From an uncultured Nitrospiraceae bacterium (lineage in GTDB: Bacteria; Nitrospirota; Thermodesulfovibrionia; Thermodesulfovibrionales; Dissulfurispiraceae): a stretch of DNA of 56,855 nucleotides. The translations under genes were made by a program, and so were the position numbers. Every line of letters starts with the position of its first letter. The first letter of the stretch is position 1. This document shows positions 27,279 to 35,791 of the stretch, one piece after another. The notes below the pieces were generated by a model, which was given only the letters and a program-made list of their open reading frames with translations, was not told the DNA's origin and did not search any database. The stretch covers positions 1 to 56,855 of the forward strand of contig CAMTVO010000043.1 of NCBI GenBank assembly GCA_947085205.1, written 5' to 3'.

Positions 27279-27929
27279 GTGGAAAAGGAAAGAATAGACG
27301 AGGCTCTTGAGCTTTTGTGGGAACTGGGCGAAGAAGGATATTCCGATGTTAAGAGGTTTAAGTTGAGTTCCGATGATGCGGATGTCGACTCATTGATAAA
27401 TGCATTGACGGACGAAAGGCTTGCAATGATAGAAGACGGCAAGATTAAGCTTACGGATAAAGGGAGCGGGCTTGCAAAAGGACTTGTCAGAAGGCATAGG
27501 CTTGCAGAGAGGCTGTTTACAGACGTCTTTGACCTTTCGGGCGATATTGTCCATGAAGATGCCTGCAAAATGGAGCATATACTTAGCAAGGAGCTTACAG
27601 ACAGCGTTTGCACTTTTTTGGGCCATCCTCCCACATGCCCGCATGGAAAGCCGATTCCGAGAGGAGAGTGCTGCAAGAAATACAAAGTGGATGTACAGCC
27701 AGTCGTGGTAAGGCTTGCCGATTTCGAGGTCGGTCATAAGGGCAAGATATTGTTTATAACTCCGTCTGAGGCTGCGAGGATAGGCCGTTTAAGCTCCATC
27801 GGCATAATTCCGGGGACGATAATAAAATTGATACAAAAAAGGCCTTCCATAGTCCTACAGGTGGATGAAACCACCATTGCCGTAGACCCGGAGCTTGCAA
27901 GGGAAATTTTTGTAAAAAAGGTTGCATGA
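27279..27929 (+). CDS. DtxR/MntR-family metal-dependent regulator with a C-terminal FeoA domain
   Basis: RRHRLAERLF, ACKMEH, CPHGKPIP, FeoA-like RLSSIGIIPGT. Confidence 0.88.
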   Translation: MEKERIDEALELLWELGEEGYSDVKRFKLSSDDADVDSLINALTDERLAMIEDGKIKLTDKGSGLAKGLVRRHRLAERLFTDVFDLSGDIVHEDACKMEHILSKELTDSVCTFLGHPPTCPHGKPIPRGECCKKYKVDVQPVVVRLADFEVGHKGKILFITPSEAARIGRLSSIGIIPGTIIKLIQKRPSIVLQVDETTIAVDPELAREIFVKKVA

Positions 27930-30508
27930 ACCGCCTTCGTATATCGGTAAGTGGAATTGTTCAGGGCGTTGGCTTCAGGCCTTTTGTTTATAACCTCGCC
28001 GGAGGCCTCAACATAAAGGGCTATATAAAAAACACATCCGAAGGGGTTGTTATCGAGGCCGAGGGCGAAGGCCTTGATGATTTCCTGACATCCATCCGGA
28101 ACAAATGCCCGCCCATCGCCAGAATAGATAGAATCGAAATAAAGGAACTCCCCCCTGACGGCTGCAAAGACTTTATAATTGTAGAGAGTCTCGATGAAGG
28201 CAGCTTCACGCTTGTATCTCCTGACATTTCTGTTTGCGATGACTGTCTGAATGAATTATTTGAGTCGTCCGACAGGCGTTATCTCTATCCGTTCATAAAC
28301 TGCACAAACTGCGGGCCGCGTTACTCAATAACCGAAAGGGTTCCATACGACAGGCCGAATACAACAATGTCTGCATTTAAGATGTGTCCGCAATGTTTGT
28401 CCGAATACGGCAATCCGCATAACCGCAGATTCCATGCCCAGCCGAATGCATGCAGTGAATGCGGGCCATCATTAGAGTTGAGAGTCAAGAGTTCAGAGTT
28501 TACCCCCCTTAGGCAATTAAAGGGGAGTGTAGTCCCAGCTAAAGAGGCAATAAAAGCGACCATAGATGTTTTAAAGCAAGGTGATATTGTTGCCGTCAAA
28601 GGACTCGGTGGTTTTCATCTATGCTGTGACGCTGCAAATGCAGATGCGGTAAAACGGTTAAGGGAGATGAAGAGGAGAAGCAATAAGCCTTTTGCGCTTA
28701 TGTCGCCGGATGTTGAGACAATCAGGCAATTCTGCAGCGTCTCGGAAGATGAAGAGAAACTGCTGACAGATAGAAGAAGACCGATAGTGCTTCTGAAAAA
28801 AAGAGGCAATAGGCAAGAGGCAATAGGCAAGAGGCTTCCGGATGAGATTGCACCGAATAATAAATATCTCGGCTTTATGCTGCCTTATACGCCGCTGCAT
28901 TATCTTTTATTTTTTTATCCTTTAACTCCTCACTCTTCACTCCTCACCCCTCACTTTATTGCCCTTGTTATGACGAGCGGAAACCTTTCGGAGGAGCCGA
29001 TAGTTATAAGTAATGAAGAGGCGATATCGAAACTCTCAGGAATTGCAGATGCCTTTCTTTTACATGACAGGGATATTTTCATGAGAGTCGATGATTCGGT
29101 AGTGAAAGTTCGTAATGCGATATGCGTAATGCGTAATGAGTTAAAAGAAAATATTTTTTCAAACAAGGAAATGGATTTCAATCCATCACGCATCACGCAT
29201 TACGCATTACGGTCTTTTATCCGCCGTGCCAGAGGTTATGTGCCGGAGACCATTAGATTGAATGATGAAGGCCCTGATGTCTTAGGCTGCGGCGCTGATA
29301 TCAAGAATACATTCGCTATCACTAAAGGCGATTACGCAATAATAAGCCAGCATATAGGAGATATGGAAAATTATGAAACCCTGAAATTTTTTGAGGAAAC
29401 CCTTAATAATCTGAAACAGGTTTACAGGGCGAATCCAATTGCTATTGCCTATGACCTGCATCCCAATTATCTTTCCACGCAGTGGGCGTTAAATCACGGT
29501 TCACGGTTCACGGTTCACGGTTATGGTATTCAACATCACTATGCTCACATAACATCTGTAATGGCTGAAAGAGGGCTTAACGATAAAGTTATAGGGGTTG
29601 CCTTTGACGGCACAGGATACGGCGCTGACGGAAACTTGTGGGGAGGCGAATTCCTTGTCTGCGACTTGAATGACTTTAAGAGGGTTGCACATTTCAAATA
29701 TATTCCGCTTCCGGGCGGTTCAAAGGCTGTAAAGGAGTGCTGGAGGACGGCAATAAGCTATATAGTCAAGAGTTTAGAGTTTAGAGTTATGAGTTATGAA
29801 GGGAAAGGCGTCTATCAAGATATTGACTCTGAACTCCGAACTCTGAACTCCAAAGTTGTCTGGGATTGTCTTAATTCCATCGGATTTGTGGATAGATACG
29901 GCAGGAATAATATCGAGAATATCTTGAAGCTGCTTAACAACAGGCAATTCTCTCCGCTTTCATCGGGTGCAGGCAGGCTTTTTGACGCAGCATCCGCGCT
30001 GTCAGGCATATGCGATGAAAATACATTCGAAGGCGAAGCGGCTATAGCGCTCGAAAACATGGTTCGCGGTTCGCAGTTCACGGTCCACAGCGAGCCGTAT
30101 CCTTTCGAGATTTTAGAAGCTCATAACTCAGAACTCAGAACTCAGAACTCACCACTAATCGTGGACTTTTCTCAGATGATTTTGCAGATAATCTGCGATG
30201 TTAAAAGTAGGGAGAATAAGAGCATTATTGCTGCAAGGTTTCATAATACGATTGTTAATGCGATAACAGAAGTCGTTATCCGCATAAACAAGAAATATGG
30301 AATAAACAAAGTCGCGTTAAGCGGAGGCGTGTTCCAGAATTCTTATCTTTTGGAAAATACATTTATCCGACTTTTATCAGAAGGATTTGAGGTTTATACC
30401 AATGAGAAAGTCCCGTGCAATGACGCTGGCATATCCCTCGGGCAGGCGTATATCGCAAGGGAGAGATTAAAAAGGAACTCAAACTTTAAACTTGCTTATT
30501 CCCTGTAG
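27926..30508 (+). CDS. hypF: [NiFe] hydrogenase maturation carbamoyltransferase HypF with repeat-derived inserts
   Basis: GIVQGVGFRPF, two zinc fingers, KGLGGFHL, QHHYAH, DGTGYG, NDAGISLGQ. Confidence 0.96.
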   Translation: MNRLRISVSGIVQGVGFRPFVYNLAGGLNIKGYIKNTSEGVVIEAEGEGLDDFLTSIRNKCPPIARIDRIEIKELPPDGCKDFIIVESLDEGSFTLVSPDISVCDDCLNELFESSDRRYLYPFINCTNCGPRYSITERVPYDRPNTTMSAFKMCPQCLSEYGNPHNRRFHAQPNACSECGPSLELRVKSSEFTPLRQLKGSVVPAKEAIKATIDVLKQGDIVAVKGLGGFHLCCDAANADAVKRLREMKRRSNKPFALMSPDVETIRQFCSVSEDEEKLLTDRRRPIVLLKKRGNRQEAIGKRLPDEIAPNNKYLGFMLPYTPLHYLLFFYPLTPHSSLLTPHFIALVMTSGNLSEEPIVISNEEAISKLSGIADAFLLHDRDIFMRVDDSVVKVRNAICVMRNELKENIFSNKEMDFNPSRITHYALRSFIRRARGYVPETIRLNDEGPDVLGCGADIKNTFAITKGDYAIISQHIGDMENYETLKFFEETLNNLKQVYRANPIAIAYDLHPNYLSTQWALNHGSRFTVHGYGIQHHYAHITSVMAERGLNDKVIGVAFDGTGYGADGNLWGGEFLVCDLNDFKRVAHFKYIPLPGGSKAVKECWRTAISYIVKSLEFRVMSYEGKGVYQDIDSELRTLNSKVVWDCLNSIGFVDRYGRNNIENILKLLNNRQFSPLSSGAGRLFDAASALSGICDENTFEGEAAIALENMVRGSQFTVHSEPYPFEILEAHNSELRTQNSPLIVDFSQMILQIICDVKSRENKSIIAARFHNTIVNAITEVVIRINKKYGINKVALSGGVFQNSYLLENTFIRLLSEGFEVYTNEKVPCNDAGISLGQAYIARERLKRNSNFKLAYSL

Positions 30509-31576: not shown

Positions 31577-32656
31577 ATGCAAGACGACAGTCTCTTTTGC
31601 AATCTTTCACGGCGGGGTGTATCGAGAAGGGACTTCATGAAGTTCTGCACTGCCATGGCCGCAACGATGGCCCTGCCTCCGGGACTTATATCGCAAATAG
31701 CGGAAGCCTTCGAAAAGAAGCAGAAGCCTTATCTTGTCTGGCTCGAGTATCAGGATTGCGGCGGCGATACCGCGGCGCTGCTGGGGGCTAACAATCCGAC
31801 GGTTGCAGAGATAGTCCTCGACATTCTTTCTGTGGAATATCACGAAACAATAATGGCTGCGTCAGGAAAACACGCGGAGAAGTCCCTTATGGATGTTGTT
31901 AAAAAACATAAGGGTAAATATTTTGCCGTTGTCGAAGGCTCTATACCGATGAAGGACGGAGGCGTTTATTGCTGCATTGGAGGTAAATCCGCCGTTGACC
32001 TTTCAAAGGAAATATGCGGCAATGCACTCGCAACAATTGCAGTTGGTACATGTGCATGTTACGGAGGTATCCCTGCTGCAAATCCGAATCCTACCGGAGC
32101 GGTCGGCGTCAAGGACGCCATGCCGGGCATTACTGTTGTTAACCTGCCGGGATGTCCGGTCAATGTCGAAAACATAACAGCAACAATAGTTCATTATCTT
32201 ACATTCTGCTCGCTGCCTACACTTGATGGTCTTGGCCGCCCTTATTTTGCATACGGCAAGAGGATTCATGACCATTGCGAAAGGCGCGCGCATTTCGATG
32301 CCGGACAATTTGTCAGAAAATGGGGCGACGAAGGACACAGGCTCGGCTGGTGCTTATACGAAATGGGATGCAAAGGGCCTGCTGCATACAAGAATTGTCC
32401 TATAGTTAAATACAACGAAGGAACGAGCTGGCCTGTTCAGGCAGGACACGGCTGCATTGGCTGTGCAATGCCGAATTTCTGGGATACCATGACGCCGTTC
32501 TACAGAAGACTTCCGAAAGTTCCGGGCTTCGGCGTCGAGGCTGCTGCCGATAAGATAGGCATTGGCATTGCAGCAGCGGCGGCAGCAGGCGTGGCGGCCC
32601 ATGCTATTGCAAGCACTGCAAGGAAGAAAGAGTCTAAAGAAAAGGGGAAAGAATAA
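31577..32656 (+). CDS. Group 1 [NiFe] hydrogenase small subunit (Tat-exported, C-terminal anchor)
   Basis: SRRDFMK Tat motif, GTCACYGG, PGCP, HDHC, GWCL...GCKGP, CP...GHGCIGC, hydrophobic tail. Confidence 0.95.
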   Translation: MQDDSLFCNLSRRGVSRRDFMKFCTAMAATMALPPGLISQIAEAFEKKQKPYLVWLEYQDCGGDTAALLGANNPTVAEIVLDILSVEYHETIMAASGKHAEKSLMDVVKKHKGKYFAVVEGSIPMKDGGVYCCIGGKSAVDLSKEICGNALATIAVGTCACYGGIPAANPNPTGAVGVKDAMPGITVVNLPGCPVNVENITATIVHYLTFCSLPTLDGLGRPYFAYGKRIHDHCERRAHFDAGQFVRKWGDEGHRLGWCLYEMGCKGPAAYKNCPIVKYNEGTSWPVQAGHGCIGCAMPNFWDTMTPFYRRLPKVPGFGVEAAADKIGIGIAAAAAAGVAAHAIASTARKKESKEKGKE

Positions 32657-32680: not shown

Positions 32681-34390
32681 ATGGCAAAGATAGCAATTGA
32701 CCCGATAACGAGGATTGAAGGTCATCTCAGGATCGAGGCCCAGGTAGAGGGCGGTAAGGTTGTGGATGCATGGTCGTCCAGCACCATGTTCAGGGGCATA
32801 GAGATAATTCTTCAAGGCAGGGACCCGCGTGATGCGTGGGCATTTACCCAGCGAATATGAGGCGTATGAACAACGGTTCACGCCACCAGCTCCGTGAGAG
32901 CGGTAGAAAATGCCTTAGGAATAACAATTCCGGATAACGCGAGGATAATCAGGAACCTTATAACCGGAATACAGTATGTTCAGGATCACGTGATCCATTT
33001 TTATCATTTGCACGCCCTCGACTGGGTGGATATCGTAAGCGCCTTAAAGGCAGACTCTTCAAAGACATCATCCCTTGCCCAGTCCATATCTGACTGGCCC
33101 AAATCATCTGCGTTATATTTCAAGGGAATTCAGGACAGAGTCAAGGCATTGGTTGACAGCGGACAGTTAGGGATATTCTCCAATGCCTATTGGGGGCATT
33201 CTGCATACAAACTGCCTCCTGAAGCGAACCTGATGGCAGTAGCCCACTACCTTGAGGCGCTCGACTGGCAGAAGGATGTAATAAAGATTCAGACATTGCT
33301 GGGCGCAAAGAATCCGCATGCACAGACATATCTTGTGGCCGGCATGTCCATACCTGTCGATCCCAACAGCCAGAATGCCCTTAACGCGGGAAGCATCGCC
33401 TTTATGTCAGGGCTTGCGAAAAAGGCTCATGAGTTCGTCGAAAAAGTCTACATCCCCGACCTGCTTGCGGTTGCGTCGTTCTATAAAGAATGGGCAAATT
33501 ACGGCGGCGGTGTGGGCAACTTCCTTGTGTACGGCGAATTCCCCAACGACAATCAGAGCAATACAGCCAACCTCTGGCTCCCGCGAGGGATAATCAAGAA
33601 TAAGGATTTAAGCAAAGTCCATCCTGTGGATCACACAAAGATTATGGAATATGTTACGCATTCATGGTATGAATATGCTGGCGGGGACGCAAAAGCCAAG
33701 CACCCGTGGGACGGAGAGACAAATTATAAATATACCGGCCCGAAACCTCCTTACGAGTTTCTCGATACAAACAAGAAATATAGCTGGCTCAAGGCACCGA
33801 GATATTAGGATATGCCTATGGAAGTAGGCCCGCTTGCGAGGATGCTCGTAGCTTATGCATCAGGACACAAGCGCATAAAAGAGGTTGTGGACAGCATATT
33901 GAAGAAACTTGGTGTAAGCCCTGAGGCATTATTTTCTACGCTCGGCCGTGTTGCTGCAAGGGGAATAGAAACTCTGGTTACAGCAGAGATGCTCTCTGTC
34001 TGGCTCGACCAGCTTGCCTCGGGCATGAAGAAGGGAGATCTCCGCATCCACAACGGCAGCAAATGGGAACCTTCTACATGGCCGAAAGAGGCGCGCGGTT
34101 TCGGTTTTCATGAGGCACCGAGGGGAGCATTGGGACACTGGATTTTAATAAAAGACAAAAAGATCGCCAATTACCAGTGCGTTGTGCCGAGCACATGGAA
34201 CGGCTCTCCGAGGGATGCAAAGGGACAAAAGGGGCCTTATGAGGCTGCGCTCATCGGTACGCCTGTAGCGGATATCAACAAGCCAGTAGAAATACTGAGG
34301 ACGATACATTCCTTTGATCCCTGTATGGCTTGCGCGGTTCATGTTGTAGACGCGGCGGGTAAAGAACTTGCAAAGATACGAATAGTTTAG
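32681..34390 (+). CDS. Group 1 [NiFe] hydrogenase large subunit with two in-frame TGA (32858, 32867) and one in-frame TAG (33806); recoded gene or pseudogene
   Basis: RBS AGGAGG and ATG 32681 give MAKIAIDPITRIEGHL...QRI*GV*TTVH; ORFs 32894-33808 and 33812-34390 share this frame; EAPRG and DPCMACAVH present; 570 codons. Confidence 0.9.
32885..32904 (+). promoter_or_regulatory. Candidate bacterial SECIS hairpin
   Basis: ACC-a-GCTC-(CGTGA)-GAGC-GGT; loop about 24 and 33 nt after the two TGAs, G at loop position 2. Confidence 0.5.
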
Positions 34391-34399
34391 GAGGGGACA

Positions 34400-35044
34400 A
34401 TGTTAAAGAAGGTTTATGTATGGGAGTTTCCGGTTCGGATGACCCACTGGATAAATGTCCTCTGCATAGCGGCGCTGTCCGTTACCGGCTATTACATCGG
34501 AAATCCCTTTATCCATGCCATTTCCACCGACCAGTACATAATGGGGTGGATGAGGTTTATACACTTTGTTACGGCGTACCTCTTTACGGTGAGCTTCCTG
34601 ATAAGGATTTACTGGGCATTTAAGGGGAACAAGCATGCACGTCTTAAGGAATTTCTTTATTTCAGGGCTCAGCAATTCATAGACTTGATTAATGACATCA
34701 AGTACTATATTTTTATGAGAAAAGAGCATTCTCAGGCTGTCGGGCATACTGCCCTTGCTTCAGCAGTATATTTGGGTTTGTGGATTCTATTTATAGTCCA
34801 GATACTCACCGGTTTTGCCCTTTATTCGCAGAGCCATCACGGAATTTTCTGGAAGCTCATGGGAGGCTGGCTTCTTTCGGTATTTTCCGCTCCGACTATT
34901 AGGCTGTATCATCACATGATGATGTGGTTTATGGTATTCTTTGTTATAGAACATGTATACCTTGTATGGCTTGCTGACAGGTTACAAAAGGGAGGGTTTA
35001 TCAGCTCCATGTTCAGCGGTTACAAAACAGTGGAGGAAGATTAA
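34400..35044 (+). CDS. Ni/Fe-hydrogenase b-type cytochrome subunit
   Basis: VYVWEFPVRMTHW, RFIHF, GH, RLYHH, HVY, SSMFSGYK. Confidence 0.94.
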   Translation: MLKKVYVWEFPVRMTHWINVLCIAALSVTGYYIGNPFIHAISTDQYIMGWMRFIHFVTAYLFTVSFLIRIYWAFKGNKHARLKEFLYFRAQQFIDLINDIKYYIFMRKEHSQAVGHTALASAVYLGLWILFIVQILTGFALYSQSHHGIFWKLMGGWLLSVFSAPTIRLYHHMMMWFMVFFVIEHVYLVWLADRLQKGGFISSMFSGYKTVEED

Positions 35045-35600
35045 AATAGATACAGTTGAATGCAATAGGGAGTTTTCGCAAGGGGGACAGAGTCCTTCTT
35101 GCGGCCATATAGCTGTTATAGGACTCGGCAATATACTTTTAAGGGATGAGGGCGTCGGGGTTCATGTAACAAACACCATAAAACAAGGGTATACCTTTTC
35201 TCCATACGTGGAGATAATTGATGGTGGAACCATGGGCCTCGATCTTCTGCCGCTCTTTGAAGGGCGTGATAAAATCTTAATCGTCGATGCCGTAGATTTC
35301 GGCAGAGAGCCGGGATATGTCGGTATAATCAAAAATGAAGACATACCATCCGCGCTCAATTCAAAACTCTCTGTCCACCATATAGGGCTTTCTGATGTCC
35401 TCTTTGCCTCAAAGCTGATGGGCATATCGCCGTTGGAAATATGCCTTATCGGAATACAGCCTGAATCACTCGATGTTGGGCTTGACATGACAGAGGAGAT
35501 TAAAGGGAAAATAGAGACAGTGATAGATTTAATCATCGGAAAGCTGAAGGAGTGGAACATAGAATGTGCCTTGCTGTCCCGTCAAGAATCATTGAAATAA
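35040..35600 (+). CDS. Hydrogenase maturation endopeptidase (HyaD/HybD family); start uncertain
   Basis: IGLGNILLRDEGVG, IDGGT, IVDAV, SVHHIG, GIQP. Confidence 0.88.
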   Translation: MKIDTVECNREFSQGGQSPSCGHIAVIGLGNILLRDEGVGVHVTNTIKQGYTFSPYVEIIDGGTMGLDLLPLFEGRDKILIVDAVDFGREPGYVGIIKNEDIPSALNSKLSVHHIGLSDVLFASKLMGISPLEICLIGIQPESLDVGLDMTEEIKGKIETVIDLIIGKLKEWNIECALLSRQESLK

Positions 35601-35791
35601 ACAATCTTCTCGCAACTGTTGATGTATATGGAGCAAGGAAAAAGATAAGCCTTTTGCTCCTTCCTGAAGAGGCGCATCTCGGCGATTATGTCCTCGTGCA
35701 CGCAGGCTTTGCAATTCAAAAGGTGGACAAAGAAGCTGCAAAGGACGCCCTGAATCTCATCAGGGAGATCACCGAGACAATGGAAGAATGA
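35564..35791 (+). CDS. hypC: Hydrogenase chaperone HypC
   Basis: MCLAVP...GDYVLVHAGFAI. Confidence 0.95.
   Translation: MCLAVPSRIIEINNLLATVDVYGARKKISLLLLPEEAHLGDYVLVHAGFAIQKVDKEAAKDALNLIREITETMEE

Follow-up and report, generated by a model that had tools for sequence, protein, structure and literature searches.

UGA codons at both N-terminal nickel ligands of a Group 1 uptake [NiFe] hydrogenase, probably read as selenocysteine through a single downstream hairpin

Introduction

The characterised [NiFeSe] hydrogenases carry one selenocysteine (Sec, U), at the terminal-ligand position of the C-terminal motif, and engineering had made the N-terminal positions seem poor for selenium (PMC8020662). 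Thus, the E. coli Hyd-1 variants C76U and C79U (Evans et al. 2021, PMC8020662) are active at 3% and 13% of native, respectively, with a lower KM for H2 and reduced O2 tolerance. N-terminal motifs of the CXXU, UXXC or UXXU type have been described, as predictions only, in hydrogenases of Groups 4b, 4e and 4g (Takano et al. 2026, PMC13582414). UXXU accounted for 16 of the 23,473 Group 4 sequences of that survey, which left Groups 1-3 outside its range; two Group 1 CXXU sequences (Baltazar et al. 2011) are cited in the same paper. Here we describe a locus in a 56,855-nt stretch of bacterial DNA (the window) in which TGA occupies both N-terminal ligand codons of a Group 1 hydrogenase large subunit.

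Results

Gene content of the locus

The hydrogenase genes and their neighbours in the window are as follows.

27926..30508, + strand: HypF carbamoyltransferase (TIGR00143, 781 bits), a maturation gene near the operon and outside it
31577..32656, + strand: hydrogenase small subunit with Tat signal and hydrophobic C-terminal anchor (TIGR00391, 441 bits; TIGR01409, over cut-off)
32681..34390, + strand: [NiFe] hydrogenase large subunit, assigned to Group 1; 569 aa by readthrough, N-terminal U-x-x-U, C-terminal C-x-x-C; best PDB match 3MYR chain B
34400..35044, + strand: hydrogenase b-type cytochrome subunit (TIGR02125, 171 bits, over cut-off)
34953..35600, + strand: HyaD/HybD-type maturation protease (TIGR00140, 153 bits from residue 53), start codon uncertain
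35552..35791, + strand: HypC/HybG chaperone (TIGR00074, 78 bits)

In a PDB search, the large subunit aligned with 3MYR chain B over residues 3-554 (E 1e-222). The best 51 matches extended from this structure through periplasmic and membrane-bound enzymes, with F420- and NAD-linked enzymes appearing at 1e-28 or weaker. Judged by sequence likeness and gene content (both Ni motifs, a Tat-exported small subunit upstream, cytochrome b and a maturation protease downstream), the locus is a Group 1 membrane-bound, cytochrome b-linked uptake hydrogenase. The proximal-cluster motif of the small subunit reads C-G-G-D, with Asp replacing the second Cys. HydDB subgroup 1f, with the features we take that group to have, is suggested by gene order and the proximal Asp/Asn (C-x-x-D) only. 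The small subunit also has an additional Cys two residues past the next ligand (C-A-C-Y-G-G); among relatives, the proximal motif is CAGC, CAGD or CAGN.

HypA is likewise encoded elsewhere in the window, and a Clp1-type polynucleotide kinase gene (PF16575; 30606-31454, - strand) lies between the operon and hypF, divergent from the former. No in-frame ATG, GTG or TTG occurs in the interval from the cytochrome b stop to the protease domain (window 34953-35130); the protease may start within the cytochrome b gene, or at an ATT/ATA downstream of the GGAGG at 35032. The same genome encodes dsrA.

In-frame stop codons of the large-subunit gene

Three stop codons interrupt the large-subunit frame.

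32858..32860, + strand: UGA1, codon 60; aligns to the first Cys of RICGVC in 3MYR
32867..32869, + strand: UGA2, codon 63; aligns to the second Cys of RICGVC in 3MYR
33806..33808, + strand: in-frame TAG, codon 376; probable assembly error for GAG (Glu)

An initial, sequence-only reading of this DNA had placed TGA at both Cys positions of RxCGxC and ordinary Cys codons in the C-terminal DPCMAC. Both statements proved correct: the stops lie within R-I-*-G-V-*-T-T-V-H (asterisks denote stops), and the C-terminal residues are encoded by TGT (codon 548) and TGC (codon 551). The UGA1 position corresponds to a terminal Ni ligand and the UGA2 position to a Ni-Fe bridging ligand, as these roles are given in PMC13582414. 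In the public runs X1 and X2 (depth about 160), contigs span the two TGAs and keep them, with no differing letter and neither TGC nor TGT in their place.

The same reading took the frame to be intact on both sides of the TGAs, thereby overlooking TAG376. X1 (depth 160; this DNA may come from that run), X3 and X5 each have one contig across 33806, and all three show G there, giving GAG; the X2 contig does not reach it. Hence, TAG376 most likely arose through misassembly, although contigs lose rare variants and the stop may exist as a minor allele. At other loci, codon 376 is GAA, GAG, GAC, GAT or AAT (Glu, Asp or Asn) in 21 of 21 readable cases, 8 of the 29 being unmatched by the pattern. Three further explanations of the stops were considered and discarded. 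Pyrrolysine at TAG376 would go with a PylS or a tRNA-Pyl, and the genome has neither a PylS over cut-off nor a CUA tRNA of this kind. General TAG recoding found no backing in a coding-potential scan of the genome, which returned 7 TAG and 14 TAA candidates, the three matches listed resembling neighbouring genes. As to a general reassignment of TGA, all 16 Trp codons of the large-subunit gene are TGG, and neighbour genes terminate with TGA.

A covarying hairpin downstream from the two TGAs

Two structures were considered in the RNA around and beyond the TGAs.

32885..32904, + strand: SECIS-type hairpin whose stem of 4+3 bp has a single bulge; 32893-32897 form the apical loop, C-G-U-G-A; -7.6 kcal/mol
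32861..32884, + strand: possible second hairpin over UGA2 with an N-A-C-G loop, containing the synonymous G at 32875; candidate element

The consensus for bacterial SECIS elements (PMC13188914) specifies a loop of 3-9 nt, a stem of 4-16 bp, G in the first two loop positions, a distance of 16-37 nt from the UGA and an MFE of -7.5 or below. The hairpin at 32885-32904 falls within all of these limits, within the energy limit barely; downstream of both UGAs, its loop is 32 nt from UGA1 and 23 nt from UGA2. The SECIS-like hairpin pointed out from the sequence is thus present. Taken on this one sequence it is not significant, since 17 of 200 shuffles fold equally well; its support, which is strong, comes from covariation across homologs and not from the folding energy of a single sequence.

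The loop contains a Val codon, which is GTG in all 131 distinct UXXU sequences and all 15 CXXU sequences, versus 8 of 22 CXXC sequences; elsewhere, roughly one Val codon in three is GTG. In 82 of the 131 UXXU sequences, the two codons of the stem form reverse complements, against a mean of 22 and a maximum of 36 in shuffled sets (2000 shuffles; kinship ignored). Pairing is achieved by four combinations, TGC/GCA, AGC/GCT, GCC/GGC and GCT/AGC, encoding Cys/Ala, Ser/Ala, Ala/Gly and Ala/Ser, respectively; 36 more UXXU sequences have GCC/GCG and pair in a shifted register. Altogether, the hairpin test was passed by 130/131 UXXU, 15/15 CXXU and 2/22 CXXC sequences, a test that was framed with the UXXU sequences already in view and is biased in their favour. 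Twelve sequences from a distant clade were excluded from the hairpin counts. When phylogenetically independent pairs were compared on the tree, hairpin and TGA state agreed in 8.9 of 9 (p 0.004).

The initial suggestion that one SECIS might serve both UGAs gains from these data, as the single covarying hairpin lies within consensus distance of each. In four single-UGA genes of the host, the UGA-to-loop distance is 17-22 nt, a range that UGA2 nearly fits and from which UGA1 is farther removed. These genes, which have SECIS-like hairpins (G000:C2:30493, C16:37999, C59:15079 and C19:28660), would from their motifs alone encode two thioredoxin-fold proteins (U-x-x-C/T), a peroxiredoxin (T-x-x-U) and SelD; the threshold of the scan missed some genes.

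At the synonymous position 32875, the last base of a Thr codon, G occurs in 126/131 UXXU, 8/15 CXXU and 5/22 CXXC sequences, with ACG used at 23% of other Thr codons. This G could close the hairpin at 32861-32884 or pair downstream; no compensatory partner for it was found across the homolog sequences, and its association with the UXXU state falls short of significance in the phylogeny (3.7 of 8 pairs in favour and no pair opposing; p 0.125). As a plausible guess, a second element might assist at UGA1. The idea that UGA1 has a canonical SECIS of its own was rejected: the loop of the upstream hairpin is 11 nt away and has its G last, outside the consensus.

Conservation and distribution of the double TGA

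Double TGA at exactly these codons was found in 24 of 61 genomes (the host and 60 of the same family and order), that is, in 23 of the 60 relatives. Such sharing bears out the proposal of recoding as opposed to two nonsense mutations. A pattern scan of a species-level genome collection, using DNA for R-I-UGA-G-V-UGA-T-x-x-H, gave at least 120 matches. Of the 120 matches listed, 118 are true large subunits and 2 arose by chance; the 116 classified among them, by their titles, include 65 from Nitrospirota, 34 from Chloroflexota and 11 without phylum, with single matches in Methylomirabilota, Rokubacteria, Acidobacteriota and others. In one Chloroflexota class, an even draw of 251 genomes yielded a close homolog in 62, double-TGA, single-TGA and Cys forms being intermixed. 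Protein searches led to 51 UXXU, 22 CXXU and 27 CXXC loci among 100 retrieved from a longer set of matches, and UXXC occurred in none of these 100. All 51 UXXU loci from this search have RI*GV*TTVH, and the Gly and Val codons between the stops vary only synonymously.

The gene downstream from the TGAs is under purifying selection. The dN/dS ratio is 0.03-0.06 in 5 of 8 pairs, the remaining pairs being saturated, and no further in-frame stop occurs in 105 distinct full-length UXXU proteins except for this window's TAG. A gap, frameshift or truncation breaks the downstream part in 4 of 78 true long loci (L050, L052, L112 and L121), in two cases at runs of N. The C-terminal motif is CXXC in all 119 UXXU loci that extend to it. 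The second-sphere Glu and Arg and the Asp before the C-terminal motif are present in 105/105 UXXU proteins, and the canopy Asp in 98/105, the other 7 being unmatched by the pattern. Nine protein columns contrast with the Sec state, weakly and none diagnostically. All four operon genes were found in 65 of 101 UXXU loci; many of the others end at a contig edge or have no detectable cytochrome b match.

In a FastTree phylogeny of 154 proteins (motif masked, no outgroup of known label), UXXU sequences form one broad group with CXXU and CXXC nested inside; in such a tree, the 18 changes can be read as gains or as losses. The named neighbours nearest to the query are Nitrospirota, several of them labelled Thermodesulfovibrionales. 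A second, distant CXXU clade of seven members (L282-L288; Group 1, about 52% identical to the query) has a different hairpin and probably represents an independent origin of bridging Sec. One Chloroflexota genome (G077; L082, L258, L300, L308) encodes this hydrogenase type twice as UXXU and once as CXXC; of two other genomes, one combines UXXU with CXXU and the other has two CXXU copies. Reversion to Cys through loss of the Sec trait was considered and set aside: two nested CXXC genomes have no tRNA-Sec or selA match, yet both have selB and one has a TGA-containing selD.

The sequence-only reading had expected gene callers to truncate this gene, and they do. Of the 120 top-scoring database proteins, 65 begin at the GTG of the loop, measure 498 aa and lack the motif; another 51 are full-length CxxC proteins and 4 are unclassified. 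Consequently, the first 71 residues are missing from over half of the nearest database entries.

Selenocysteine machinery and a SelC*-like tRNA

A search of the genome for the Sec machinery, suggested with the initial reading, found selA, selB, selD (itself with a TGA) and selC, a tRNA-Sec with anticodon UCA and G73. A tRNA-Sec match was obtained in 23 of the 24 UXXU relatives, the exception having selA and selB, and in 41 of 45 further UXXU genomes drawn from the pattern scan and labelled other than Nitrospirota; the 33 of these that were inspected all have UCA and G73. Nearly every genome in the two host groups has Sec genes (RF01852 match in 56/61, selA in 70/80), so that their co-occurrence with the double UGA discriminates little. 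Three low-scoring tRNA matches in deltaproteobacterial genomes turned out to be ordinary UCA/G73 tRNA-Sec.

SelB-type Cys insertion, the other mode of decoding that had been envisaged, is represented in this genome by a candidate tRNA; no such candidate was found in most double-TGA genomes. The gene (G000:C52:4303-4425, - strand; L003, L165) is 123 nt long and specifies a GCA anticodon, an 8-bp acceptor stem, U73 and a long branched variable arm; a GCA or UCA anticodon and U73 are the marks of SelC*/tRNA-ReC in PMC13582414 and PMC7609411. By sequence likeness, its neighbours are a LysR-type regulator and a YeeE-type transporter, with a YedF-like gene nearby, an arrangement that recurs in several relatives. 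A second copy (G000:C52:2093-2180, - strand) has an altered 5' acceptor strand and overlaps the end of a transposase-like fragment, possibly as an insertion target duplication.

To survey these tRNAs, a model built from 23 such tRNAs of this order was used with a cut-off of 74 bits. About 25 of the 61 genomes of the order carry a SelC*-type tRNA, of 93-132 nt. Matches are distributed over 9 of 24 UXXU relatives versus 16 of 37 others, one weak further match being uncounted, so that there is no enrichment; on this ground SelC* was rejected as a required partner of the double UGA. Unlike the co-occurrence of Sec genes, this comparison has discriminating power. The two closest relatives (94% identical protein; genomes 98-99% complete) have no SelC* match, and among a further 80 genomes, 60 of them UXXU, it was found in only 2 (2/60 UXXU genomes). 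These counts come from a search with low sensitivity to divergent forms, in which 49-64 candidates were scored per genome and tRNAs are often unassembled. In most double-UGA genomes, tRNA-Sec appears to be the only UGA-reading tRNA. One UXXU genome that also has an ordinary tRNA-Sec carries a UCA-type tRNA-ReC with A1:U72 and U73 (L228/L312; G080:C222:3119-3210). In another genome, a degenerate SelC*-like tRNA (L038; G030:C3:960042-960162, - strand) lies directly upstream of a CXXC hydrogenase operon; at other sites, the same genome encodes an intact SelC* and a CXXU hydrogenase.

Discussion

Decoding of the two UGAs

Taken together, the data make it probable that this locus encodes a functional Group 1 uptake hydrogenase whose two N-terminal Ni-ligand UGAs are both read as Sec by way of one hairpin. 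SelB would bind the G-U-G loop of the single downstream hairpin and bring Sec-tRNA(Sec) to codon 60 and again to codon 63. In the mature enzyme, the Ni site would then comprise Sec60 (terminal), Sec63 (bridging), Cys548 (terminal) and Cys551 (bridging). The enzyme, facing the periplasm, would oxidise H2 and pass the electrons through cytochrome b to the quinone pool; we infer this coupling of H2 oxidation to quinone for a host that has dsrA. Sec is favoured over Cys at both sites because a SelC*-like tRNA was found in only 9 of the 24 double-TGA relatives. Several observations count against double Sec. This genome has the SelC*-type tRNA, which could place Cys at either UGA; the distance of 32 nt from UGA1 to the loop is beyond that seen in the four single-UGA host genes; and the engineered Hyd-1 variants were less active and less O2-tolerant (PMC8020662).

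Other readings were weighed against double Sec. Recoding could be SelB- and SECIS-dependent and yet insert Cys at one or both UGAs through SelC*/tRNA-ReC. This might hold for this organism at least, or under selenium shortage, and would give Sec+Cys or Cys+Cys. The candidate tRNA in the same genome fits such a scheme, as do the listing of Nitrospirae among SelC* carriers (PMC7609411) and the finding of this tRNA type in some 56% of the Group 4 genomes with UXXU, where either UGA may then be Cys (PMC13582414). However, SelC* is not enriched with UXXU and is missing from the two closest relatives, which makes this scheme unlikely in our view. It is markedly less plausible that UGA63 alone is the true Sec codon of the hairpin and that UGA60 is read by a near-cognate tRNA-Cys or tRNA-Trp or by some other factor. 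The occurrence of the same hairpin in 15/15 CXXU genes, the absence of UXXC from the 100 protein-search loci retrieved, a loop spacing that suits UGA2 better than UGA1 and a synonymous G at 32875 largely confined to double-UGA genes would all agree with this. Against it, the 32-nt spacing of UGA1 is within the 16-37 nt consensus, and UxxU selenoproteins are predicted in other bacterial families (PMC13188914). Nor is there an evident reason for a leaky stop at a Cys codon to be retained across more than 100 genomes. Trp, moreover, is unable to ligate Ni, which speaks against the tRNA-Trp variant.

The remaining alternatives concern the integrity of the gene. The family might be recoded and this copy be a young pseudogene, with TAG376 real in part of the population. 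The TAG is indeed present in the window, but the contigs of X1, X3 and X5 have G at 33806, dN/dS relative to relatives is 0.03-0.06 and the small-subunit, cytochrome b and maturation genes are all intact; we consider a pseudogene very improbable. A split gene, in which translation stops at UGA60 and restarts at the GTG of codon 72 to give the 498-aa database protein, can draw on the invariance of that GTG and on its being the start of 65 of the best 120 database proteins. Yet the restart product would be devoid of two of the four Ni ligands, the residues from the stops to the GTG are conserved with synonymous change only, no Shine-Dalgarno-like run is found just upstream of the GTG, and the GTG is part of the hairpin loop, with the same invariance among CXXU genes. 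Such a restart seems hardly credible.

With double Sec as the preferred reading for this locus, a wider proposal can be put forward, tentatively and with more doubt than confidence. Across much of Thermodesulfovibrionia and in numerous Anaerolineae, the membrane-bound uptake hydrogenase may as a rule have a di-Sec site (terminal plus bridging) that truncated gene calls conceal. Its UGAs, nine bases apart, might be decoded from one SECIS loop with the aid of a refolding second cis-element, marked by the double-UGA-specific G at +15, and a switch between Sec and Cys according to selenium supply would be possible in SelC* hosts.

The clade described here keeps UGA at both N-terminal ligands, under purifying selection, in more than 100 species-level genomes. 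It offers natural enzymes in which the effects of a bridging and a second terminal selenolate on H2 catalysis and O2 damage can be tested, as well as a natural test case for one SECIS serving two close UGAs. Surveys that demand a complete protein or its N-terminal motif will overlook or misinterpret these enzymes, a variant common among uncultured bacteria.

Comparison with known hydrogenases

The initial reading had proposed a candidate new double-selenocysteine class, which overstates the case. The apparent novelty lies in the presence of UXXU among Group 1 uptake enzymes and in its frequency there; UXXU had already been predicted in Group 4, and Group 1 CXXU sequences had been cited (PMC13582414). 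No report of UXXU in Group 1 was found in the literature searched, to which most subscription journals and bioRxiv supplements did not belong; the passages searched of PMC6258894, PMC13326102 (main text and supplement) and PMC8762117 contain nothing on this motif.

The canonical [NiFeSe] enzymes (Desulfovibrio vulgaris HysL, Desulfomicrobium baculatum 1CC1, Group 3 Vhu/Fru) share with this gene a Sec Ni ligand encoded at UGA. They differ in having a single Sec, as the first residue of the C-terminal motif, where this gene has Cys (TGT). The Hys family models score this locus far below their cut-offs (large subunit, NF045518, 421 < 780 bits; small subunit, NF045520, 244 < 470 bits), and the canopy residue, Ser in NiFeSe enzymes (PMC8020662), is the Asp noted above in UXXU proteins.

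Group 1 enzymes of the Cys type (3MYR; E. coli Hyd-1 and Hyd-2; Geobacter Hya, which we take to be HydDB group 1f) have the same fold, the same second-sphere Glu, Arg and Asp, and the same operon order of small subunit, large subunit, cytochrome b and protease, whereas all four of their ligands are Cys and they have no recoding signal. A proximal Cys-to-Asp replacement as found here is listed for Geobacter metallireducens (PMC4070099, Table 1). In Hyd-1 C76U and C79U, Sec was placed at the two equivalent positions one at a time; here UGA occupies both. The Group 1 CXXU sequences of Baltazar et al., as cited in PMC13582414, likewise have a single Sec, at the N-terminal bridging position, and not two.

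The closest parallel is with the Group 4 UXXU sequences (PMC13582414). In both cases, UGAs occupy the N-terminal Ni motif and Cys the C-terminal one, one downstream SECIS with a loop G is proposed for both UGAs, and Sec and Cys forms make up a mosaic on the tree. The Group 4 enzymes, in contrast, belong to antiporter-containing energy-converting complexes, while this enzyme is a Tat-exported Group 1 hydrogenase with a cytochrome b. UXXC is predicted in Group 4 and absent from the 100 protein-search loci retrieved here, and SelC*, present in about 56% of Group 4 UXXU genomes, is not enriched with UXXU here. Judging from these sequences, Group 1 UXXU is convergent with its Group 4 counterpart and far commoner in the samples at hand (24 of 61 genomes, versus 16 of 23,473 Group 4 sequences).
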